Below are positions 5,372-30,948 of a stretch of DNA of 32,000 bases, one piece after another; position 1 is the first letter of the stretch; each line of letters opens with the position of its first letter. The notes beneath the pieces were generated by a model. It did no database searches, had not been told where the DNA came from, and saw only the letters and a list, made by a program, of their open reading frames with translations. The position numbers were made by a program, and so were the translations under genes. Origin of the DNA: Opitutus sp. GAS368. Lineage in GTDB: Bacteria; Verrucomicrobiota; Verrucomicrobiia; Opitutales; Opitutaceae. Location: the NCBI RefSeq assembly GCF_900104925.1, contig NZ_LT629735.1:372291-404290 (forward strand), in the 5' to 3' direction.

Positions 5372-5445
5372 GGAGGCGGGGCCATCAGCCCCGCGAGGCA
5401 TGGGCCACGTTGCCTACAACCCGCCGGGCTGATGGCCCCGCCTCC
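5372..5445. repeat. Palindromic intergenic element with perfect 20-bp arms
   Basis: GGAGGCGGGGCCATCAGCCC (5372-5391) ... GGGCTGATGGCCCCGCCTCC (5426-5445). A nested AGGCA/TGCCT stem lies in the loop. Confidence 0.9.
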
Positions 5446-10370: not shown

Positions 10371-11684
10371 TTACAAATTATCGGTGCCGAGCTGCGCGCG
10401 GATGACGGCCAGTGTGCGCTCCGTCGCGCCGCGGTTGGCTTCGCTCCATTCGCGCGCCGCGGCCGCCAGTTTTTCCCGTTGGGCGGAGTCCTGCAGCAAT
10501 TCCACCGCCACGCTGATCAGCTCGCTGTGCGTCTCCACCTTGCGCACCGCGCCGGCCTCGGTGAGCGAGCGGATGATGTCGCGGAAATTCGTCATGCGCG
10601 GCCCGTGCAGCACCGGCTGGCCGAGGATCGCCGCCTCGACCGGCGTCTGGCCGCCCTCGTGCGGCGCCAGGCTCTTGCCCGTGAACACCAGGTCGGCCAG
10701 CTGCGTGAATTTCCGCAGCTCGCCCGTCGTGTCGCCGACGGCGACATCAACCGTCCCCAAGGCCGCGCCCTCGGAGCGGAAATGAAACTTCAACCCGCTC
10801 TTCTCCAGCAGGCCGCGCAGCTCCTCGCGTCGCTCGGCATGTCGCGGCACCAGCAGGAGTGACACCTTGAGCCCCTTCTCCCGCGCGGACTTGAGCGCCG
10901 TGACCAGCGCCACTTCTTCGCCGGCCCAGGTTGAGGAACCAAGCAGCACGAGCCCGGCGCCGAGACCGAGTTCACGCCTCAGCGCCGCCTTGTCCGCCTC
11001 GGCCAGCAGCGGAATGCTGACATCGAGCTTGAGATTGCCGGTGGTCTGCAACCGCTCCGGCGGAAACCCGAGCGCTTTGAACCGCTGCTCGTCGCGCTTC
11101 GCGGCGCACAGCACCCGGGTGATGCCGACAGCCAGCGGCCGCATGAGCGCGCGGAAGCGCAGCGAGCGCTTGAAGCTGCGGTCCGACATGCGGGCGTTGA
11201 TGCTGATGACCGGCACGCGATGCGCCTGCGCCTGCGCCACATGCTCCGGCCAGCGCTCGCCCTCCATCAGGATGGCCAGGTCGGGCGCGACCTTCCGCCA
11301 CGCCGCCGCGCTGAAGGCCCACCAATCGAGCGGGAAGTAGCCGATGCCCGCCGTCAGCGCGCCGTATTTCTCCTTCGCCAGCCGGTAACCGGTGCTGGTC
11401 GTGGTGGTCAGGTAAACCTCGACGCCGGCCTCGCGTTTGAACGACTCCAGCAACGGGGAAACAGCGAGCACCTCGCCCACGCTGACGGCCTGCAGCCAGA
11501 TGCGTTTCACCCCGGCCGCCTTGGCCGGCAGCGGCGGCACATCACCGAAGCGGTGCCAGAAACCCTCGGCATAGCCGCCCCGCCGCCGCATCCGCCACAG
11601 GTAATAGGGCGACGCCAGCAGCAGCAGCGGGAGAAACAGAATTCTATAGATCCAGATCAAGGCGGGGTAACCACTAATGGACAC
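10371..11684 (-). CDS. waaA: 3-deoxy-D-manno-octulosonic acid (Kdo) transferase
   Basis: IWLQAVSVGEVLAVSPLLESF, LLVPRHAERREELRGLLEKSG, LADLVFTGKSLAPHEGGQTPVEAAILGQPVLHGPRMTNF. The upstream start lies in a repeat, so the true start is probably near 11660. Confidence 0.9.
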   Translation of the reverse strand: MSISGYPALIWIYRILFLPLLLLASPYYLWRMRRRGGYAEGFWHRFGDVPPLPAKAAGVKRIWLQAVSVGEVLAVSPLLESFKREAGVEVYLTTTTSTGYRLAKEKYGALTAGIGYFPLDWWAFSAAAWRKVAPDLAILMEGERWPEHVAQAQAHRVPVISINARMSDRSFKRSLRFRALMRPLAVGITRVLCAAKRDEQRFKALGFPPERLQTTGNLKLDVSIPLLAEADKAALRRELGLGAGLVLLGSSTWAGEEVALVTALKSAREKGLKVSLLLVPRHAERREELRGLLEKSGLKFHFRSEGAALGTVDVAVGDTTGELRKFTQLADLVFTGKSLAPHEGGQTPVEAAILGQPVLHGPRMTNFRDIIRSLTEAGAVRKVETHSELISVAVELLQDSAQREKLAAAAREWSEANRGATERTLAVIRAQLGTDNL

Positions 11685-11732
11685 TAAGAGACACTAATGA
11701 TTAGTGAGGAATTAGTGTAGATTAGTGGTTAA
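11667..11732. repeat. AT-rich palindromic element built from CACTAAT/ATTAGTG units
   Basis: gtaaccactaatggacactaagagacactaatgattagtgaggaattagtgtagattagtggttaa. The two halves are near-complementary around CACTAATGATTAGTG. Confidence 0.85.
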
Positions 11733-12864: not shown

Positions 12865-12916
12865 TGGAGGGCTCAGCTCCAGCTGAGCCGCGGCCCAGCT
12901 GGAGCTGGGTCCTCCA
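12865..12916. repeat. 52-bp near-perfect palindrome with TGGAGG...CCTCCA ends
   Basis: TGGAGGGCTCAGCTCCAGCTGAGCCG|CGGCCCAGCTGGAGCTGGGTCCTCCA; 23 of 26 arm positions pair. Lies between divergent genes. Confidence 0.9.
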
Positions 12917-16731: not shown

Positions 16732-17826
16732 TCAGGGTGTCGCGCGCTCCAACTTCAGGTTCAGCAGCGGCACAAGCAGCAGCAGCCCGACACACGTGAG
16801 CCCCAGCACGGCGTAGCCCGCGGCATCGTGCACCGTGCCGTTGATGGCCCCGGGGCCGTAGGCGTAGGCCCAGCCGGTGAGGAACAGGCTGCGCGCCAGG
16901 TTCATCAGGAAGGCGAAGATCATCGACGCCACCACCAGCGTGACCTTCTTCCACGGCTGCTCGAAAAACGTCGCGCCGAGGAACGACCCGGCGAAGAGGC
17001 ACGCCGTCAGCGACCGGATGCCCGAGCAGGCGTCGGCCACGCCGACCGGCCCCTTCGGCAGCATCAGCACGTTGCCCTGCTGCTCGAGCGGGAAGCCGAG
17101 CATGTCGAACACGAAGGCCACCACCGTCACCACCTTCCGCAACAGGAAGAGGCTGACCTGCGACTCGACGGCCGAGACCAGCGGCGCTGAGACCAGCCAG
17201 ACCAGCACGGGAAAGATGAACAGCGCCGCCACGCGGTAGCGGCCGTCGGCGAAGAGGGCCATGAAACCATTGCCATTGGAGGGCTCGCGTCCCTGCGAGC
17301 CGGCCCGCAGAGACGCGGGCCCTCCATTCGGCGCATTGAAATAAATCAGCGGCAGCACGATCGCCACCATGCCGAGCGTCAGCGCAAAGGTGCCGGGCTG
17401 CGACGTGCCCGCGCCGGCGCGGTAAAAGGCCCCGAGCAGGAAAAACAACGCCCCCCCGAGCAGCCCGAGGCCCGCCGCCGCGTTGAGCGCCCATTGCACC
17501 CAGCGCGCACTGGCCGGCCCGGACTCCGCCGCGCGCAGGCGCCCGAGCAGCTGCGGCCAGCGGTCATAGACGACATAGGCGGTGAACAGCGGCACGAGCC
17601 AGCCGAACGAATAGTCCTCCTTCCGGCTCCACCAGTGCGACTGGTCCCACGCGACGAAGGCCATGAAGCCCGTCGACAGTCCGAGCGCAGCGAGGAACGG
17701 TGCGGGTGGTTTCGAGAGGGCTTGGGGCTGGTCGGTCACGCTGGGCCGAGCAAAGGCAAACCCGGTGACGCTGCAAGCCCGGTGGAGCGGCTTGCCCTCA
17801 AGACGCTTTCTGTAGGGCGGGATCAC
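16732..17826 (-). CDS. Exosortase/archaeosortase family protein
   Basis: Multi-pass protein with GVADACSGIRSLTACL (Cys motif), FAFLMNLARSLFLT (Arg motif), NGTVHDAAGYAVLG (His motif). The predicted start lies in a repeat, so the true start is probably downstream in the gene. Confidence 0.85.
   Translation of the reverse strand: MIPPYRKRLEGKPLHRACSVTGFAFARPSVTDQPQALSKPPAPFLAALGLSTGFMAFVAWDQSHWWSRKEDYSFGWLVPLFTAYVVYDRWPQLLGRLRAAESGPASARWVQWALNAAAGLGLLGGALFFLLGAFYRAGAGTSQPGTFALTLGMVAIVLPLIYFNAPNGGPASLRAGSQGREPSNGNGFMALFADGRYRVAALFIFPVLVWLVSAPLVSAVESQVSLFLLRKVVTVVAFVFDMLGFPLEQQGNVLMLPKGPVGVADACSGIRSLTACLFAGSFLGATFFEQPWKKVTLVVASMIFAFLMNLARSLFLTGWAYAYGPGAINGTVHDAAGYAVLGLTCVGLLLLVPLLNLKLERATP
17277..17326. 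repeat. Family A palindrome, in frame inside the exosortase CDS
   Basis: TGGAGGGCTCGCGTCCCTGCGAGCC|GGCCCGCAGAGACGCGGGCCCTCCA; 22 of 25 arm positions pair. Encodes GGPASLRAGSQGREPS. Confidence 0.9.
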
Positions 17827-17890
17827 CGTATCCCGCCACGAACGTGATATACCTTTCGAACGGAGGCGGGATACGGTGATCCCGCCCTAC
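17812..17890. repeat. Family B element, copy 1 (79 bp, perfect 26-bp arms)
   Basis: GTAGGGCGGGATCACCGTATCCCGCC (17812-17837) and GGCGGGATACGGTGATCCCGCCCTAC (17865-17890). Confidence 0.95.
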
Positions 17891-17968
17891 AATTTCAAAT
17901 CTGCGCTCCACCTTCCGCCAATCCCTGTTTTGACATCCCCGCCCCGCCGGCCAAGCCTGCCCCGGAAC

Positions 17969-18460
17969 ATGGACCACCTGCACGCCTACTGGCGGATGGA
18001 ATACATCGAGGCGCCCCGCCTCCCCGAGGGCGCGAACGTCTTCGCGGAGCTGCCCAAGCTGGGGGACGACGCCACGGCGTTCATCATCCACCGCAGCCCG
18101 CTGTCCTACCTCATCCTCAACCGCTATCCCTACAACCCGGGCCACCTGCTCGCCGTGCCCTTCCGCGCCGCTTCGGACATCGCCGAACTCACCGCGGCCG
18201 AACGCGCCGACCTGATGGACGAGATAATCCTCGGCAAGGAGATCCTCCGCGCCGCCATCAATCCCAACGGCTTCAACGTCGGTTTCAACCTCGGCGCCGC
18301 CGCCGGCGGCAGCATCCCGCACCTCCACGCCCACATTGTGCCGCGCTGGAACGGCGACACGAACTTCATGCCCGTCATCGGCCAGACCCGTGTGCTCCCG
18401 CAGTCCCTCGCCGCGATGTATGCCCGGCTCAAGGAAGTGGCTGAAAGCCTTAAGCTCTAA
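17969..18460 (+). CDS. HIT family protein (histidine triad)
   Basis: MDHLHAYWRMEYI..., NPGHLLAVPFR, NLGAAAGGSIPHLHAHIVPRW (HxHxH). Confidence 0.9.
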   Translation: MDHLHAYWRMEYIEAPRLPEGANVFAELPKLGDDATAFIIHRSPLSYLILNRYPYNPGHLLAVPFRAASDIAELTAAERADLMDEIILGKEILRAAINPNGFNVGFNLGAAAGGSIPHLHAHIVPRWNGDTNFMPVIGQTRVLPQSLAAMYARLKEVAESLKL

Positions 18461-18465
18461 GCCGA

Positions 18466-18519
18466 AAGCTTTAAGCAGAACCGGTCCGAACACCCTGTTG
18501 CCAAACCAGCTTAAAGCTT
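18466..18519. repeat. Inverted repeat AAGCTTTAAGC / GCTTAAAGCTT between HIT and phoH-like genes
   Basis: Perfect 11-bp arms at 18466-18476 and 18509-18519. Confidence 0.7.
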
Positions 18520-18548
18520 ATCGCTTACTGCCTACCGCTCCTCAACCC

Positions 18549-19523
18549 GTGCCCGACTCCAAGACGCTCCAATACCCGAACGCCCGCCACCTCAACCAAC
18601 TCTATGGCGGCAACGAGGACAATCTCACCCGCGTGGAAAAGGCGCTCGGCTGCCGGCTTACCACCCGTGACGACTGGCTGAAGGTCGAGGGCCCCGCCGA
18701 GGCCGTCACGCGCACCGCGGAATTCTTCGCCCTGCTGAACTCCGGCAAGACCCAGGGCCTGGCCGTGCGCACGCCCGACTTCGTCCGGCTGCTCGACCTC
18801 TACGCCAAGGACGGCGGCGCCAGCCTGCGCGCGCTGGTCAACGAGCCGCTCGTCATCGCCACCCAGCGCAAGAGCGTCGTCCCGAAAACCCTCGGCCAGA
18901 AACTCTACCTGCAGGCTATCCAGAAGAACCCGATCGTCTTCGGCATCGGCCCCGCCGGCACGGGCAAGACCTACCTCGCCATGGCCGCGGCCATCTCCGC
19001 CCTCCTGAAGAACCAGGTGCAGCGCATCGTGCTCACCCGCCCGGCCGTCGAGGCCGGCGAGGCGCTCGGCTTCCTGCCGGGCGACCTGCGCGAGAAGATC
19101 CTTCCCTACCTCCGCCCGCTCTACGACGCGCTCCACGACATGCTCGACCCCGAGGACGTCGCGACGCTGTCGGAAAAGGGCGTCATCGAGATCGCCCCGC
19201 TCGCCTACATGCGCGGCCGCACCCTGGCCAACGCCTACATCATTCTCGACGAGGCGCAGAACACCTCGCACGAGCAGATGATGATGTTTCTCACCCGTCT
19301 GGGCGACGACTCGCGCATGATCATCACCGGCGACATCACGCAGATCGACCTGCCGCGTAACAAGACCTCCGGCCTCGTCCAGGCCCCGCGCGTGCTGCGC
19401 AACATCCCGGGCATCGAGTTCCACCACTTCACCGCCAGCGACGTCGTGCGCCACCCGCTCGTGCAGAAGATCATCGACGCCTACGAGCAGGCCCGGTCGG
19501 CCGAGCCCATCGGGCCGGGTTGA
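18549..19523 (+). CDS. PhoH-like ATPase
   Basis: VFGIGPAGTGKTYLAMAAAIS, RIVLTRPAVEAGEALGFLPGD, YIILDEAQNTSHEQMMMFLTRLG, DITQIDLP. GTG start at 18549; the longer ORF from 18336 overlaps the HIT gene. Confidence 0.92.
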   Translation: MPDSKTLQYPNARHLNQLYGGNEDNLTRVEKALGCRLTTRDDWLKVEGPAEAVTRTAEFFALLNSGKTQGLAVRTPDFVRLLDLYAKDGGASLRALVNEPLVIATQRKSVVPKTLGQKLYLQAIQKNPIVFGIGPAGTGKTYLAMAAAISALLKNQVQRIVLTRPAVEAGEALGFLPGDLREKILPYLRPLYDALHDMLDPEDVATLSEKGVIEIAPLAYMRGRTLANAYIILDEAQNTSHEQMMMFLTRLGDDSRMIITGDITQIDLPRNKTSGLVQAPRVLRNIPGIEFHHFTASDVVRHPLVQKIIDAYEQARSAEPIGPG

Positions 19524-19526
19524 TTT

Positions 19527-19576
19527 TGGAGGGCCCGCGTCTCTGCGGGCCGGCTCGCAGGGACGCGAGCCCTCCA
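19527..19576. repeat. Family A palindrome, intergenic copy
   Basis: TGGAGGGCCCGCGTCTCTGCGGGCCGGCTCGCAGGGACGCGAGCCCTCCA; nearly the reverse complement of the copy at 17277-17326. Confidence 0.92.
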
Positions 19577-19584
19577 CCAAGCCA

Positions 19585-20184
19585 ATGAACCGCGAAGTCG
19601 CCATCACCAACCGCCACCCACGCCTGCGCTTCCGCCGGGCGGAGGTGGCGCGTGTCATTCACGTTCTCGATACCGGTTTCGTGAAATCCCCTCTGGAGAG
19701 GGGCCTGTCGGCCATAGGCTCGGCGACGGCTGATGCCGCAAAGCGCCGGGGGGTGTCGGCGGTCCCGGCCGGCGAACTCTCCCTCGTCTTCCTCACCGAC
19801 CCGGCGCTGGCGAAGATCCACGGCGATTTCATGGCCGACCCGACGGCGACCGACGTCATCACCTTCGCGGGCGAGCCGACGGCCCTGGGCTCCGAAGCCT
19901 TGGCGAAGGAGGCCGGCCTCGCCGGCGAGATCTGCGTCTCGGCCGACACGGCCGCTCGGTATGTAGGGGCGTCCCTTGTGGACGCCCGCGGGCGTCCACA
20001 AGGGACGCCCCTACAGGAAAAATTCTCCGCCGAACTGACCCTCTACGTCGTGCATGGCTGGCTCCACCTGGCCGGCTACGACGACCTGCAGCCCGCCAAG
20101 AAGCGCCGCATGCGCGCGGCCGAGGCCCGGGCGATGAAGCTGTTGCGGGCGGCGAAAGCCGTGCCGGAATTTCGCCTGGCCTAA
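19585..20184 (+). CDS. ybeY: Endoribonuclease YbeY (rRNA maturation factor), carrying two repeat-derived inserts
   Basis: ELSLVFLTDPALAKIHGDFMADPTATDVITF, GEICVSADTAARY, ELTLYVVHGWLHLAGYDD. Confidence 0.9.
   Translation: MNREVAITNRHPRLRFRRAEVARVIHVLDTGFVKSPLERGLSAIGSATADAAKRRGVSAVPAGELSLVFLTDPALAKIHGDFMADPTATDVITFAGEPTALGSEALAKEAGLAGEICVSADTAARYVGASLVDARGRPQGTPLQEKFSAELTLYVVHGWLHLAGYDDLQPAKKRRMRAAEARAMKLLRAAKAVPEFRLA
19685..19759 (+). repeat. Family D element variant, in frame in ybeY
   Basis: aatcccctctggagaggggcctgtcggccataggctcggcgacggctgatgccgcaaagcgccggggggtgtcgg; ends match the copies at 289-400. Encodes KSPLERG...KRRGVSA. Confidence 0.8.
19962..20015. repeat. Perfect 54-bp palindrome (family E), in frame in ybeY
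   Basis: TGTAGGGGCGTCCCTTGTGGACGCCCG|CGGGCGTCCACAAGGGACGCCCCTACA; all 27 arm positions pair. 54 nt is 18 codons. Confidence 0.97.
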
Positions 20185-20200
20185 GAACACAAACAATTCT

Positions 20201-20289
20201 CCGCGGATTGCGCGGATACTCGCAGATGCAATCCATCGGACCCGCAATTGTTTTTTGCAGTAATCCGCGCCCATCCGCGTCATCCGCGG
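20201..20289. repeat. Intergenic inverted repeat CCGCGGATTGCGCGGAT / ATCCGCGTCATCCGCGG
   Basis: Arms 20201-20217 and 20273-20289; 15 of 17 positions pair. Confidence 0.75.
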
Positions 20290-20371
20290 AAAATGCATGA
20301 GGGTATGGGCTATTGGCACGTCCAAAAAAATCAGTGGCGTCCCGGTTCATCTGTGATTCACTGCGCCGTTC

Positions 20372-21034
20372 ATGCCCTCCTCCCGTTTCACTTCCCTTCG
20401 CAACGCCTTCCTCACGGGCTTGGTGCTGGTCGCGCCACTGGTCGCCACCGTTTGGGTGCTGCGCCTGATCATCAGCTTTGTCGGCGGCTCGATCACGCCG
20501 TTGTTCCTGCCTTATCTGCCCGAGATGCTGAGCCACCTGCCGTCCCTCGTCTGGGACGTGCTGGCCACCCTCATCGCGCTCGGGTTCGTCACCCTGCTTG
20601 GTTATGTCTCGCATCTTTTCCTCGGGCAGTTCGTGGGCGCGCTCGGCGAGCGTTTGATCCAGGGCATCCCGGGCATCGGCGGCTTCTACAACAGCGTGAA
20701 GCAGTTCATCGAGACCTTCGGGGCGAAAGACCGCACGCAGTTCAGCAAAGTCGTGCTCGTGCAGTTCCCGCGGCCCGGTGCCTACACCATCGGCTTTGTC
20801 ACCAACACCGGCCAGGGCGAACTGCACACGCACTTCAAAAACGACCACTGGGCCGTGTTCGTCCCCACCTGCCCCAGCCCGGTCAACGGCTTCTTCATGT
20901 ATCTGCCCGCGATGGAACTCATCGAACTCGATATGTCGGTCGGCGATGGCATGAAGACCGTCATCTCCTGCGGCGCCGTCCTGCCGACCTGGAATGACCC
21001 GGCCGCGGCGAAGGCCGCGCTGAAAAAAAACTGA
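20372..21034 (+). CDS. DUF502 family membrane protein
   Basis: FLTGLVLVAPLVATVWVLRLIISFVGG, IPGIGGFYNSVKQFIETFG, YTIGFVTNTGQGEL, VFVPTCPSPVNGFFMYLP. Confidence 0.88.
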   Translation: MPSSRFTSLRNAFLTGLVLVAPLVATVWVLRLIISFVGGSITPLFLPYLPEMLSHLPSLVWDVLATLIALGFVTLLGYVSHLFLGQFVGALGERLIQGIPGIGGFYNSVKQFIETFGAKDRTQFSKVVLVQFPRPGAYTIGFVTNTGQGELHTHFKNDHWAVFVPTCPSPVNGFFMYLPAMELIELDMSVGDGMKTVISCGAVLPTWNDPAAAKAALKKN

Positions 21035-21035
21035 C

Positions 21036-21101
21036 GGGAGGGCCGCGTCCCTGCGGGCCGTTCTTCTTGCTCGAAACGGCTCGCAGGGACGCGAGCCCTC
21101 C
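21036..21101. repeat. Family A element with an extended loop
   Basis: GGGAGGGCCGCGTCCCTGCGGGCCG - ttcttcttgctcgaaa - CGGCTCGCAGGGACGCGAGCCCTCC. Confidence 0.88.
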
Positions 21102-21164
21102 AAGGCAAGCCCCCCACCTTCATTCTCCAGTCTGTCCTCCGTCCTCTGATATCTGTCCTCTGCA

Positions 21165-21806
21165 ATGCCCGGCCAGCAGCTCCAAACCACGGCGTTCATC
21201 CTCGCCAAGCAGCCGTCGGGCTCCGACACCTTCGAGCAGCTGACGGCGTTCTCGGCCGGGGACGGCGTGCTGCACTGCCTGCGCCGCGTCGCAACCGGTA
21301 GGGTGCGGACTCCGCTCCGCGCCTCCCCCGAGGTCCCCACCAACCTCGACCTGTTCGACGAAACCGAACTGTGGCTCGAGTCCTCCAACCAGGGCCGCAC
21401 GTGGTTCATCAAGGAGCACCGCCTCATCCAGCGCCACGACGGCATCGGCCGCTCCTACGACACGCTCCGCGCCGCCGCCGCCCTCGGCGCGTTGCTCAGC
21501 CGCAATCCCGTGCCCGACGAGTCCCGCGAGGCCGTCGCCGGCCTGCTGCGCTCATCCTTCACCGCCCTCGCCGCCGGCGGCCGGCCTGACATCGTCTGGC
21601 TCAAGACCCTCTACTGCCTGCTGCGCGACGAGGGCTACCCCGTGAAGCAACAGTGGTGGCCGCAGCTCAACGCCGCCGACCGCGACCACGCCGCGCACCT
21701 GCTCAACCAGCCGCTCGCCGCCCAGATGGCCGACGCGCCCACCGTGGCCCGCATCACCCACCGGCTCGAGGACTGGGTGCGGGCGGAGACCGAGATCAGA
21801 CTGTAG
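21165..21806 (+). CDS. recO: RecO-like DNA repair protein
   Basis: Short OB-fold-like start, GVLHCLRRVATG...NLDLFDETELWLE, then a helical C-terminus. The family is diverged and the assignment rests on layout and the LDLFDE region. Confidence 0.6.
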   Translation: MPGQQLQTTAFILAKQPSGSDTFEQLTAFSAGDGVLHCLRRVATGRVRTPLRASPEVPTNLDLFDETELWLESSNQGRTWFIKEHRLIQRHDGIGRSYDTLRAAAALGALLSRNPVPDESREAVAGLLRSSFTALAAGGRPDIVWLKTLYCLLRDEGYPVKQQWWPQLNAADRDHAAHLLNQPLAAQMADAPTVARITHRLEDWVRAETEIRL

Positions 21807-21881
21807 GGCGGGATCACCGCATCCCGCCTCGAGGGTCTTATTATTTTCGCGGGAAGGCGGGATGCGGTGATCCCGCCCTAC
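21803..21881. repeat. Family B element, copy 2 (79 bp, perfect 26-bp arms)
   Basis: GTAGGGCGGGATCACCGCATCCCGCC (21803-21828) and GGCGGGATGCGGTGATCCCGCCCTAC (21856-21881). Same total length as copy 1, different loop. Confidence 0.95.
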
Positions 21882-21977
21882 ACTTGCCGGTTCCCTCTTT
21901 CCTTCCGTGTATTCCGTGCCTGCCGCGCCGTAGCTCTTGTCAGAGAGTGAAGGAGGGTGTTCCGTGGTGCCGTCTTC

Positions 21978-24554
21978 ATGAATTTCTCCCTCGAAAACCG
22001 CACGGTCAGCCTGAGCGTCGGCGAATTCGCCGGCTTCACCCTCGGCCCGTCGGACTCCGGCGGCGGCTCGCAGGGCATCTGGCGGGCCCAGCTCGGCCAG
22101 CACTGGCACAACGATCTGCAGAAGCGCACGCTCGCCGAGTCGCCCGCCGCCCAGTTCGAAGTCGTCATCGACGGCCGCATCACGCACCGCGGCTGGACCT
22201 TCGCCCTCAGCGGCCGCATCGACCAGCTTCTGCCTGAATCCCCTCTAGAGGAGGGTGGCCCACCGGGCCGGGGTGTGTTGCTGCGCGAGATCAAAAGCGT
22301 CATGCGCCCGCTGCCGGCAGAAGAGACCGACCTGCGCACGGACTACCCGGCCTACTTCCTCCAACTCGCCGCCTACACGGTGCTGGTCCGGGCCTCGGCT
22401 TCTGGCTCTGCGCTCCCTGCTCCCCGCTCCAAGCTGGTTCGCGCCGAGCTCGTCTTCGTCGAGGCCGGCTCGGGGCTCGCGCAGACCATCGCGCTCACGC
22501 CATTCGACGAGGCGTTGGTCCACCACCAACTCGACGCCCTCGTCGAGTTTCTCAACCTGCGGCTCCGCGCCACCGAGCGCCGCCGGGCGCTGACATTCCA
22601 TCCGGCCTTCCCTTCGTTGCGCGCCGGGCAGGAAACCATCCAGCAGAATCTGTCCTCTGCCCTCCGTCCTCCGCTGGCCGCGCCGAAGCTTTCGTCCGGC
22701 GAAAGCGAAGGCGGGGCCTCTGTCGTCTTGTTCGAGGCCCCGACCGGCTACGGCAAGACCGGCTGCGTGCTTGAGTTCGCGCTCGGGCAGATGAAGGCCG
22801 GCCGCTTCGCCCGGCTCATCTGGCTGACCGGCAAGTCCACCGGCCAGCTGCAGGTTGTCCACACCCTCCAGCAGATGACCGGTGGAACCGGGCCTCTGGA
22901 CCGGTTTTCTGCGACCCCCGCCGAACCAACCCGTCCGGAGGCCGGGTTTCACCCTCTCGCCTTCTGGCAGGTGCGCAACAAGTCCGAGCACTGCATCAAC
23001 CACACCTTCCACTGCGTGCGCGACGGCTGCGATTTCCTGAAAGACTGCGCCGAGCGCTGGCCCGACAGCGGGCTGGCCAAGTTCTACCTCGACGACCGCC
23101 AGCCGCGCGACCTCGCCACCCTGCGCGCCGCCGGCCGCGAGGCCCGCATCTGCCCCTACGAGATCACGCGCGCCTCGCTCGCCTTCAACGACGTGTGGAT
23201 CGGCGACTTCAACTACGTCTTTGCTCCCGACAACCGCGGGCTTTTCTTCGACCAGCCTGGTTTCGACCCGGCGGAGACGCTGCTGGTCATCGACGAGGCG
23301 CACAACCTCCCCTCGCGCGTCGCCGGCGCCCACTCCCACCGCGCCACCGACACCGACGCCCGCTTGCTGCTGGCCGAGCTCGACCACTTGCAGGCTCCGG
23401 CCACCCTCGTGCTGGCGCTGGAGGAATGGACGCGCCTGCTCGCCTCGCTCCGGCCCGCCGACTCGCTCGATCCCGCCATCGAGGCCGAGGTGCACGACCA
23501 TGTGGCGAAACTGGCCAATCTCGTCAGCACGCAGCCACTGGACTACGCCGCGCTCGGCCCGAAGCACGCGGAAACGCTCTGGTCGTTCGGACAGCTCGCT
23601 GAATTTCTCGATGACGCCAAACTCACCAAACTCCTGTGGGTGGCCCGCGAGGGCGAACTGGAGTTCACCTGTGTGGACGCGGCGCCGGCCATCGGTGAAA
23701 TCCTGAAAACCTTTGGCGGTGCGATCCTGATGTCCGCCACGCTGCAGCCTTACCCCGAGTTCGCCGCTTCGTGCGGGCTGGTAGGGCGAGTCGTCCCCGA
23801 CGAGCCGCGGCTCACCGAGACGGTTCGCCCTACCTATGCCACCCTCCACGCGCCCACGCCCTGGCGGGCCGGGGCCTACGATGTCGCCGTGGACCTGCGC
23901 GTCAGCACCACGTTTCGCGAGCGCAGCACCTACTACGGCACGACTGCCGCGACGGTGGAAGAACTGCATCGAGCTTCCTCCCTTCAGGTTTCAGGTCTCA
24001 GGTCTCAGGTCTCCACAGCGACAGCCGCCGTCGCCGTCTTCTTCCCCTCTTACGCCTACGCCGAGGCGGTGCTCCGCGCGTTGGAACAGAACGGCTCGGT
24101 GCTCCGCGTCGCCCTGCAGCCGAAGCTCCCCGATCTCACGGCGCAGACGGCGTGGATCGAGGAGAACGTCGCCCTGAGCGACGCGCTCTTCCTCGTGCTC
24201 GGCAGCAGCTTTGCCGAAGGCATCGATCTGCTCGGCGGCCGCGTGAGCCACGCCATGGTCGTCGGCCCCGCCCTGCCCGAGGTCAATGCGGTGCAGAAGG
24301 CGCGCATGGACGCGCTGGCCGGGCTTGGCCGCGAAGCGTCGTTCCGCCGCGTCTACCAGATCCCCGGGCTGCAGAAGGTGAACCAGGCCGTCGGTCGCCT
24401 CGTGCGCGCGCCCGGCCAGCACGCCAAGATGCTGCTGCACTGCCGGCGCTTCGCCGAGCCGTCCTACGCCGCGCTGCTCGCGGCGGACTACCAGATGTTC
24501 AAGGAGATCGCCTCCGAGTCCGACCTCCGCGAGTGGTTGGACGGGACGGGCTAG
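21978..24554 (+). CDS. DinG/Rad3-like ATP-dependent DNA helicase with N-terminal PD-(D/E)XK (Cas4/RecB-like) nuclease domain
   Basis: GRIDQL...LREIKS nuclease motif, FEAPTGYGKTG Walker A, CINHTFHCVRDGCDFLKDC FeS-type cysteines, LLVIDEAHNLPSR DEAH box, QAVGRLVRAPGQ motif VI. Confidence 0.9.
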   Translation: MNFSLENRTVSLSVGEFAGFTLGPSDSGGGSQGIWRAQLGQHWHNDLQKRTLAESPAAQFEVVIDGRITHRGWTFALSGRIDQLLPESPLEEGGPPGRGVLLREIKSVMRPLPAEETDLRTDYPAYFLQLAAYTVLVRASASGSALPAPRSKLVRAELVFVEAGSGLAQTIALTPFDEALVHHQLDALVEFLNLRLRATERRRALTFHPAFPSLRAGQETIQQNLSSALRPPLAAPKLSSGESEGGASVVLFEAPTGYGKTGCVLEFALGQMKAGRFARLIWLTGKSTGQLQVVHTLQQMTGGTGPLDRFSATPAEPTRPEAGFHPLAFWQVRNKSEHCINHTFHCVRDGCDFLKDCAERWPDSGLAKFYLDDRQPRDLATLRAAGREARICPYEITRASLAFNDVWIGDFNYVFAPDNRGLFFDQPGFDPAETLLVIDEAHNLPSRVAGAHSHRATDTDARLLLAELDHLQAPATLVLALEEWTRLLASLRPADSLDPAIEAEVHDHVAKLANLVSTQPLDYAALGPKHAETLWSFGQLAEFLDDAKLTKLLWVAREGELEFTCVDAAPAIGEILKTFGGAILMSATLQPYPEFAASCGLVGRVVPDEPRLTETVRPTYATLHAPTPWRAGAYDVAVDLRVSTTFRERSTYYGTTAATVEELHRASSLQVSGLRSQVSTATAAVAVFFPSYAYAEAVLRALEQNGSVLRVALQPKLPDLTAQTAWIEENVALSDALFLVLGSSFAEGIDLLGGRVSHAMVVGPALPEVNAVQKARMDALAGLGREASFRRVYQIPGLQKVNQAVGRLVRAPGQHAKMLLHCRRFAEPSYAALLAADYQMFKEIASESDLREWLDGTG
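22237..22278 (+). repeat. Family D element, in frame in the helicase nuclease domain
   Basis: aatcccctctagaggagggtggcccaccgggccggggtgtgt; matches the 354-400 copy. Encodes ESPLEEGGPPGRGV between GRIDQLL and LREIKS. Confidence 0.85.
22688..22706. repeat. Hairpin GCTTTCG-TCCGG-CGAAAGC in the helicase CDS
   Basis: Perfect 7-bp arms in a non-conserved stretch (APKLSSGESEGG) before Walker A. Confidence 0.5.
23780..23834. repeat. 55-bp element with perfect 10-bp ends GGTAGGGCGA / TCGCCCTACC in the helicase CDS
   Basis: ggtagggcgagtcgtccccgacgagccgcggctcaccgagacggttcgccctacc, with nested stem TCGTC-CCC-GACGA. Confidence 0.75.
23984..24011 (+). repeat. Heptamer tandem repeat TCAGGT[T/C] x4 in the helicase CDS
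   Basis: tcaggtt tcaggtc tcaggtc tcaggtc. Encodes LQVSGLRSQVS. Confidence 0.85.
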
Positions 24555-30883: not shown

Positions 30884-30948
30884 TGGAGGGCGCGCGTCCC
30901 TGCGCGCCGGTTCGATCGCCAACGGCCCGCCGGGATGCGGGCCCTCCA
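30884..30948. repeat. Family A element with an extended loop, between convergent genes
   Basis: TGGAGGGCGCGCGTCCCTGCGCGCCGG - loop - CCCGCCGGGATGCGGGCCCTCCA. Confidence 0.85.

Follow-up and report, generated by a model that had tools for sequence, protein, structure and literature searches.

In-frame repetitive extragenic palindromes and tandem repeats within conserved genes of Opitutus sp. GAS368

Background

Repetitive extragenic palindromes (REPs) are imperfect palindromes of 20–40 nt with a conserved terminal tetranucleotide that occur in many dispersed, mainly extragenic copies, pair in inverted orientation, and have cognate REP-associated tyrosine transposases (RAYTs). Di Nocera, De Gregorio and Rocco (2013; PMC3733652) catalogued REPs tagged with GTAG or CGTC, some of which lie wholly within open reading frames (ORFs). 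According to that article, intragenic GTAG REPs are most numerous in Opitutus terrae, where their hosts include uvrA and helicase genes and about 70 Oter_ entries appear in the supplement. The same article gives one case of different REPs at one site, in Xanthomonas recB, and classes the Rickettsia palindromic elements RPE-4 and RPE-6 as CGTC-tagged, not GTAG-tagged. Here we describe the repeats in a 32,000-nt stretch of the Opitutus sp. GAS368 genome (contig NZ_LT629735.1, positions 372,291 to 404,290; hereafter the window), some of which lie in frame inside genes encoding an exosortase, the RNase YbeY and a DinG/Rad3-like Fe-S helicase. We consider it probable, at roughly 0.8, that the palindromic sites are REP elements, mostly inverted dimers, that were spread by RAYTs and are tolerated in gene loops.

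Repeats in three conserved genes

The region from 16.7 to 24.6 kb of the window encodes the exosortase (reverse strand), a HIT protein, PhoH, YbeY, a DUF502 protein, a protein of 213 amino acids and the helicase. This gene order is the same in eight of eight related Opitutaceae loci (L001–L008), which were fetched via their YbeY orthologs. The exosortase gene (16732–17739, reverse strand) was recognized from a match to PF09721 (E = 2.3e-46) and from ortholog alignment, which places its start at the GTG of 'VTDQPQ'. The ybeY gene (19585–20184, forward strand) encodes 199 amino acids that match TIGR00043, and the helicase gene (21978–24554, forward strand) was recognized from its DEAD_2 (PF06733) and Helicase_C_2 (PF13307) domains and a nine-way alignment. 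No family match was obtained for the 213-amino-acid protein in a profile search of the window proteins.

A preliminary description of the window had reported six repeat sites in frame within these genes and had placed those of the exosortase and ybeY outside the catalytic motifs. All six sites were confirmed at the coordinates given and read in frame, and comparison with orthologs shows every one of them to coincide with an insertion or a replacement. The catalytic blocks are free of inserts and conserved in the orthologs (the exosortase block ADACSGIRS, the YbeY block HGWLHLAGYDD, and the helicase motifs Walker A, DEAH and Fe-S cysteines). Four further in-frame repeat segments (19885–19914, 21298–21323, 22395–22432 and 22652–22673) had been overlooked.

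The host genes might be decaying pseudogenes in which the repeats mark disruption, a reading that we find scarcely credible. The one point in its favor is the high insert load, with three inserts in the 199 residues of YbeY. However, the exosortase, YbeY and helicase ORFs are all uninterrupted, the catalytic motifs are invariant, and synteny and frame are kept in the eight relatives. In addition, the G+C content at third codon positions (GC3) is 0.87–0.88 for the exosortase and helicase ORFs, a value typical of coding sequence here. YbeY falls slightly short of the GC3 filter of 0.8, in keeping with the inserts that it carries.

Palindromic families

The exosortase insert (17277–17326) is a 50-nt inverted dimer of a unit designated family A, arranged like a REP doublet forming a hairpin (REPIN), and encodes NGGPASLRAGSQGREPSN in frame within a loop of the protein. 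It is 100% reverse-complementary to an intergenic twin in the gap between the PhoH and YbeY genes (19527–19576). Two more intergenic dimers are found downstream of the DUF502 gene (21036–21102, with a 17-nt spacer) and at 30884–30948. The half-site pattern occurs eight times in the window compared with 0.04 expected, and the exosortase copy has a DNA folding z of -5.2. Family A has a stem of 8–9 bp and carries the tag GGAGGG, a G-for-T variant of GTAGGG. The dimer reads without a stop in all three forward frames, and the G+C content is 62–71% in 1-kb windows over most of the window; in-frame read-through is therefore not remarkable by itself in this G+C-rich genome. We found family A in at least 120 stretches of species-representative genomes, nearly all from Opitutaceae (Lacunisphaera, Oleiharenicola and Opitutus), and dimers in '+-' orientation account for 68 of 143 elements.

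The third YbeY site (19962–20015, forward strand) holds an inverted dimer of family C, a perfect 54-nt palindrome of two 27-nt halves bounded by GTAGGG and CCCTAC that encodes VGASLVDARGRPQGTPLQ in frame and has a folding z of -11.4. This family was found in 119 stretches of metagenome contigs, mostly as single units (122 of 135). The fifth helicase site (23781–23833, forward strand) is an imperfect palindrome of family D with the same start and end, encoding VGRVVPDEPRLTETVRPT in frame (folding z = -3.7). Family E (GTAGGGCGGGATCACCG...) is represented by two intergenic dimers at 17811–17891 and 21802–21882. Window copies of families A, C, D and E are all dimers (four for A, two for E and one for C). 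A single GTAGGG-tagged unit (GTAGGGTGCGGACTCCGCTCCGCGCC; 21298–21323, forward strand) adds nine amino acids in frame to the 213-amino-acid protein. It has seven copies in six loci, and the same family occupies the fifth helicase site of L003. The nine-residue segment is present in none of eight orthologs, and L006 carries a different insert there.

Families C, D and E all start with GTAGGG and end with CCCTAC, and four such brackets are present in the window (two intergenic and two intragenic) compared with none expected. They are REPs in having the short palindrome and the conserved terminal tetranucleotide, and family A belongs with them through its variant tag. The preliminary description spoke of several unrelated families within a few kilobases. 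Several families there are, although A, C, D, E and others have a common REP architecture, G(T/G)AGGG...CCCT(A/C)C. Its account of all sites as palindromic or tandem repeats holds for those beginning at 17277, 19962 and 23780, which are REPIN-form dimers, and for the tandem array at 23984, but those at 19685 and 22237 fold weakly.

Family B and heptamer arrays

Two sites are single units of a different family, B, which reads CCCCTCTGGAGAGGGG...GGGGTGTGT. The first YbeY site (19685–19759, forward strand) contains a unit (CCCCTCTGGAGAGGGG...GGGGGGTGTCGG) with a nested segment of about 39 nt and encodes KSPLERGLSAIGSATADAAKRRGVS, and the first helicase site (22237–22281, forward strand) contains a unit that encodes PESPLEEGGPPGRGVL, both in frame. 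Outside genes family B occurs as an inverted pair, for which we take 283–402 of the window as the reference form, and pairs are present in at least eight other loci. A comparison of the pair with Rfam gave only sub-threshold matches to generic microRNA hairpins, and no associated gene was identified. The intergenic pairs always consist of two distinct unit types facing apart across a spacer of about 20–35 nt (...GCCCTGCGGGCACCCCTCTCCAGAGGGGATT / GGATCCCCTCTGGAGAGGGGTGGCGCGNAGCGNCGGGGTGTGT). Besides 283–402 of the window, they were observed near position 4301 of L008, 810 of L022, 6292 of L058, 485 and 3538 of L078, and 3279 of L116.

The second YbeY site is a 30-nt insert (19885–19914, forward strand) that encodes LGSEALAKEA in frame. 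Its core, GAAGCCTTGGCGAAGG ('...SEALAKE...'), has 32 matches in 31 loci. Segments reading ALAK(E/N/D) are nested in other REPs of the YbeY orthologs P0072, P0039, P0021 and P0015, and a CTTG loop is common to several of the hairpin families described here.

Three other helicase sites carry heptamer or heptamer-like repeats. The sixth site is an array of TCAGGTC in 4.3 copies (23984–24013, forward strand, 95% match) that encodes QVSGLRSQVS in frame; TCAGGTC/TTCAGGT-type units have 23 matches in 11 loci. The second site is a heptamer-like segment (22395–22432, forward strand) that encodes ASASGSALPAPRS in frame and in which Tandem Repeats Finder reports 2.9 copies of CGCTCCC (22411–22430). The third, in a hypervariable linker, has 3.1 copies of GTCCTCC (22652–22673, forward strand). 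Among arrays of at least three copies in 1.04 Mb of Opitutaceae DNA, period 7 is the commonest tandem class, with 89 arrays compared with 43, 21 and 12 for periods 6, 9 and 8. Of the 89 period-7 arrays, nearly half (42) fall within coding-like ORFs, and an inverted partner array is found near 12 of them. The heptamer arrays are a separate dispersed class, distinct from the palindromes. Recurrent units are TTCAGGT, TCAGGTC, CAGCTTT and CTCTCAA, and further period-7 arrays were seen at 21131–21162 of the window, 7643–7748 of L020, 231–343 of L051 and 5342–5403 of L037.

It could be argued that these segments are ordinary hypervariable, low-complexity linkers shaped by slippage and point mutation, and that G+C-rich composition alone lends them the look of repeats. 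The variable helicase segments at 22684–22715 and 22890–22920 are unique within 1.85 Mb, slippage could lengthen the heptamer arrays, and every ortholog shows variation in the exosortase loop and the helicase linkers. We nevertheless regard this explanation as very improbable, since it does not account for 50 nt that are 100% identical to an intergenic copy, for patterns with chance counts of 0–0.04, for hundreds of dispersed copies elsewhere, or for a perfect 54-nt palindrome inside ybeY. Dispersed identical copies refute it for the sites beginning at 17277, 19685, 19962, 22237 and 23984, and it has room only among the unique linker segments.

Ortholog comparison

Alignment confirms, at the level of sequence, that the repeat segments are insertions or replacements in conserved genes. 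The preliminary description proposed comparison with orthologs at the repeat boundaries, and segments of 10–25 amino acids are absent or different in orthologs at exactly those points. YbeY has three indel hotspots, each exactly at a repeat, in an alignment of 26 and then 120 orthologs and in the DNA of the eight loci. The helicase has six sites of presence, absence or replacement in the nine-way alignment.

At the first YbeY site family B is absent from L001 and L002 and present in a short form in L003, and heptamer arrays take its place in L004, L006 and L007. The second YbeY site shows a clean presence or absence of 30 nt, the insert being present only in the window and L002. At the second helicase site nine extra codons occur only in the window, L004 and L005, and CTCTCAA/GCTCTCA heptamers are found there. 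The fifth helicase site is empty in L001 and L002, carries family D in L004 and holds other palindromes in L003 and L005–L008. The array of the sixth site is absent from L003, L006 and L007 and built of different units in L002, L004 and L008. In the exosortase loop we identified four insert sequences and a short form. Family A is present in the window and L002, other inserts are found in L001, L004 and L006, and L007 has only a short non-repeat segment. At least three of the inserts are from dispersed families, including the L004 and L006 sequences.

The states of these sites are at odds with a tree from 1673 gap-free residues, a conflict that could arise from recurrent gain and loss, from replacement in place or from recombination among lineages. 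One reading assigns it to homologous recombination among Opitutaceae lineages that shuffles a few ancient insertions. In addition to the tree conflict itself, it would fit the restriction of family B in the helicase to the window and L003 and of the second YbeY insert to the window and L002. The helicase alleles of the window and L003 also share a 12-nt replacement, and their nearby residues read LSGRIDQLL and LNGRIDQLV. We think this reading rather unlikely, because recombination can neither create many families at one site nor explain 100% identity between an intragenic and an intergenic family A copy in one genome.

The many families at one site are clearest at the third YbeY site. The junctions TAT|GTAGGG...CCCTAC|AG are kept, but the sequence between them comes from at least five families over about 100 orthologs. 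Tandem or nested combinations occur there as well (P0002, P0072, P0073 and P0112), as do deletion remnants with the termini only, such as 'YVGAPLQ' in P0011. Within the clade of L002 and L004, family C is exchanged for family G at identical nucleotides. Moreover, orthologous family C copies in YbeY show compensatory changes in the stem, from GCGTCC/GGACGC to GCGTCG/CGACGC, GCGGAC/GTCCGC and GCGGCG/CGCCGC, and the encoded peptide changes along with them. Because the stem is compensated despite the change in peptide, either the nucleic-acid hairpin or ongoing replacement by current family variants appears to be what persists.

These observations raise a further possibility, namely that a RAYT cuts at the ends common to the families, G(T/G)AGGG and CCCT(A/C)C, and exchanges the resident hairpin for one of another family. 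Turnover would then proceed in place and not by successive random insertions sieved by selection. The constant junctions around changing interiors, the exchange of C for G, the remnants consisting of termini and the tandem or nested combinations all agree with such an exchange, and the exosortase loop and the fifth helicase site show a like pattern. However, a few permissive loops under selection combined with heavy insertion pressure could give an equal picture. The junctions vary in some orthologs (YVE..., YVGLVE...), and the families have only about 6 nt in common at their ends. We therefore entertain cassette exchange only tentatively. The same doubtful standing attaches to a more general form of the idea. 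In this form, sites in essential genes (most clearly the YbeY site between ...ARY and LQxxF, but also the exosortase loop and the fifth helicase site) would be permanent REP landing pads in which RAYTs of different families serially swap cassettes at shared ends, with the DNA hairpin maintained rather than the peptide. The heptamer arrays would be a second, undescribed class of Opitutaceae element in the same loops.

RAYT genes in relatives

The assignment of the palindromes to REP/REPIN families with cognate RAYTs draws on RAYT genes that are flanked by these families in relatives. Among the loci recovered in the family A scan, small ORFs with HUH and Y..NPV motifs adjoin family A units. Two of them, at 145–624 of L026 and in L086, encode RAYTs of 159 amino acids each. 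Family A half-sites in inverted orientation flank both genes, one a few bases 5' of the start codon and one directly after the stop. The L026 protein matches NCBIfam NF047646 with 80.6 bits (cutoff 80), its best solved relative is the E. coli TnpArep (PDB 4ER8; E = 3.6e-9), and many of its homologs are annotated RayT. A third RAYT, in L059, matches Pfam Y1_Tnp with 38.5 bits, which is below the Pfam cutoff, and is bracketed by GTAGGGTCGGCGCTTGCGCCGACC. The GTAGGGTCGGCGCTTGCGCCGACC family encodes the 'VGSALAPTS' segment that occupies the third YbeY site in many orthologs. Cognate RAYTs are thus present in relatives for family A (L026 and L086) and for the GTAGGGTCGGCG GTAGGG family (L059), and GAS368 presumably depends on such enzymes as well.

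In L096 a GGAGGCGGGG-type unit, similar to that at 5372–5445 of the window, stands ahead of a RAYT-like ORF. In addition, an IS200-like Y1 transposase ORF in a metagenome contig (L200, 541–834) contains an in-frame family C unit (...HVHGIVRIVGASLVDAHDG...).

We also considered whether the palindromes are miniature inverted-repeat transposable elements and rejected this candidate. No target-site duplication is seen when filled and empty sites are compared, the hairpins extend over the whole length of the elements instead of bounding a core, and the associated enzyme is a RAYT of the Y1/HUH type.

Distribution inside and outside genes

A count inside and outside coding sequences, as the preliminary description had suggested, was carried out in relatives and places most copies outside genes with an intragenic minority. 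Family A lies in long coding-like ORFs in 20 of 143 elements (1.04 Mb), and family C in coding-like ORFs in 15 of 135 (815 kb of metagenome loci). By the same heuristic about 73% of bases are coding-like, so that a share of about one copy in eight to ten inside genes implies strong depletion from genes. The intragenic share of about 11–14%, with 86–89% extragenic, is approximate because coding sequence was called by an ORF and GC3 heuristic, not by gene prediction, and with at least one false positive in a 5' leader (19528 of the window).

Hosts of intragenic copies confirmed with Pfam include MetH in three genomes, where the insert falls between the pterin-binding and B12-binding domains, as well as UvrA, a DEAD/DUF3516 helicase, a cytochrome P450, SCO1, a GSDH/cytochrome c protein and an FAD oxidase. 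As with the intragenic REPs of O. terrae, the exosortase, YbeY, the helicase and the 213-amino-acid protein each have a REP wholly within an ORF of more than 120 amino acids, in frame, and shorter homologs without it. The same holds in relatives for MetH, UvrA, P450, SCO1 and the DEAD helicase. An apparent frame bias of intragenic family A (about 12:6:1) disappeared after orthologous copies were collapsed and was dismissed.

The approximate nature of the intragenic share is one of several points that weigh against RAYT-spread REPs as the explanation of these sites. The window contains no RAYT, and none from GAS368 is among the best 120 of 4030 homologs of the L026 RAYT. The scanned loci, which for C comprised 815 kb of metagenome sequence, yielded no RAYT with flanking copies of family C, D, E or B; for C the one related match was the IS200-like ORF of L200. 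In 1.85 Mb just one copy of family D is non-orthologous, so that the family may represent an element that is old and decayed. Family B does not have the form of a GTAG hairpin, its units fold weakly (z of -1.95 and -0.6), and at the first helicase site its allele, found only in the window and L003, replaces 12 nt (GGCGACACC, encoding G-D-T, in the other seven orthologs) instead of being plainly added, which an insertion model does not predict. The array at 23984–24013 forms no hairpin on folding, and neither family B nor the heptamer arrays have a demonstrated mobilizing enzyme. The proposal in the preliminary description of a gene-tolerated, mobilized element system finds support for the palindromes, given the RAYT flanking in relatives, but not for family B or the heptamers, and no GAS368 RAYT was located.

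Proposed mechanism

Mobility of the palindromes is suggested indirectly, through sequence comparison, by 100% identical copies in one genome together with presence and absence among orthologs. In the mechanism that we propose, hairpin units of 25 nt tagged G(T/G)AGGG, with several families residing together, would be copied in trans as single-stranded DNA by a RAYT, an HUH/Y1 enzyme of the IS200/IS605 type. Most copies would land in intergenic regions. The units are G+C-rich and free of stops in every frame, and those whose net length is a multiple of three would yield 8–25 extra residues on landing in a surface loop or in a linker between domains. Adding no more than these residues, for the most part small or flexible, a copy of this kind would escape purifying selection; predicted insert-encoded peptides include GGPASLRAGSQGR and VGASLVDAR.

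A loop with one element would stay permissive and may also stay a target, since it retains G(T/G)AGGG and CCCT(A/C)C ends. Lineages would thus come to differ at one codon by other families, nested copies or deletion remnants, and the same loops would accept 7-base arrays of a length that preserves the frame. We infer that the inserts are translated, that RAYTs drive mobility in GAS368, and that sites are re-used in the manner outlined.

Other features of the window

The metal-binding motif of YbeY usually ends in histidine ('GYDH'). In the window protein (20053–20085, residues 157–167) and throughout its clade it reads HGWLHLAGYDD, and the final histidine is replaced by aspartate in 26 of 26 aligned orthologs. 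When YbeY is aligned by sequence with PDB 7Y7O, the solved chain has a gap of 13 residues at the third site. An AlphaFold2 model of YbeY from the 26-sequence alignment had a mean predicted local distance difference test score of 58, with low values in the conserved core too, and was unusable for placing the inserts.

Several hairpins outside the host genes were also observed. A near-perfect 34-nt palindrome, CAGCTCCAGCTGAGCCGCGGCCCAGCTGGAGCTG (12874–12907), lies between divergent genes for a deoxyhypusine-synthase-like protein and a peptidase M16 and resembles the exosortase-loop insert of L001. At 18452–18535, 20195–20290 and 11672–11727, intergenic hairpins have arms that are both short tandem arrays, in inverted orientation, with units that include the 7-mers AAGCTYT/RAGCTT, approximately 9-mers with GCGGAT/ATCCGC, and the 10-mers CACTAATGGA/GATTAGTGAA. 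A scan of the window for short-loop hairpins gave 13 matches compared with 1–9 in shuffled sequences and is too insensitive to serve as a census. A search of the whole window against Rfam returned nothing at gathering thresholds. In one relative only, L004, a gene of the PF05635 family (23S rRNA intervening-sequence proteins; 1265–1717) stands between the syntenic genes.

Comparison with known systems

The REP/RAYT system is usually seen as strictly extragenic, and here, throughout a verrucomicrobial family, it routinely appears to extend intact housekeeping proteins by stretches of peptide. Among these proteins are the RNase YbeY, an exosortase, an Fe-S helicase, MetH and UvrA. The set of orthologs amounts to a natural experiment on the tolerance of proteins to hairpin-DNA inserts and on the site-directedness of REP turnover. 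The inserts also have practical consequences for annotation. They inflate apparent divergence, with YbeY orthologs down to about 75% identity mainly through indels, and they depress profile scores (E = 6e-17 for Pfam YbeY and 7e-4 against the PDB).

The heptamer arrays recall the short tandemly repeated repetitive (STRR) heptanucleotide sequences of cyanobacteria, which Mazel and coworkers reportedly described in 1990. Like those here, the cyanobacterial arrays are dispersed, have a 7-bp unit and comprise several unit families per genome. We know of no homology or common mechanism between them. The phylum and the unit sequences differ, and here nearly half of the arrays are in frame in coding-like ORFs and some form inverted pairs. 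In the literature that we found, the term STRR appears only as a fingerprinting target, and searches on REPs of Opitutus and on heptanucleotide STRR gave nothing further of use.

The preliminary description likened the inserts to Rickettsia palindromic elements (RPEs; Ogata et al. 2000). The analogy is sound as far as function goes, since in both cases palindromes of several families lie in frame within many unrelated conserved genes and outside their catalytic cores. However, kinship in sequence is not expected, and unit length, tag and host phylum differ: RPE-1 is about 100–150 bp long and is not known to have an associated RAYT, and its host is an obligate intracellular alphaproteobacterium.

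With REPIN-RAYT systems (Nunvar 2010; Bertels and Rainey 2011, PMC3116915; E. coli TnpArep, 4ER8) the families here share inverted REP dimers as the repeated unit, RAYTs bracketed by their own REPs, several pairs of family and enzyme per genome and a mostly extragenic distribution. High copy number, dispersal, inverted pairing and, in relatives, a cognate RAYT are found among the palindromic families, with weak dispersal in family D; family B and the heptamer arrays have neither the REP palindrome nor its tag. Classical REPINs are extragenic, whereas approximately 11–14% of the copies counted here lie in coding-like ORFs, and the RAYT clade is verrucomicrobial, barely reaching the NCBIfam cutoff (80.6 compared with 80 bits) and falling below that of Pfam.

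The closest precedent, closer than the RPEs, is the set of GTAG REPs of the relative O. terrae, for which this kind of phenomenon was already published in 2013 (PMC3733652). GTAG-17 to -20 of O. terrae PB90-1 share with the present families the bacterial family of the host, GTAG(GG) hairpin units or dimers with 1–2 nt between partners, several families with family-specific RAYT loci, and in-frame dimers that encode 20–30 amino acids in conserved genes. The species and the sequence families differ (VGASLVDA here, VGPALAAG there), ybeY and the exosortase gene are not among the hosts that it lists, and family A is GGAG-tagged instead of GTAG-tagged. Relative to that article as far as it could be read, the Opitutus sp. 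GAS368 locus and its orthologs add a GGAG-tagged family with a RAYT, the re-use of one codon-level site across orthologs, and compensatory evolution of the stem.

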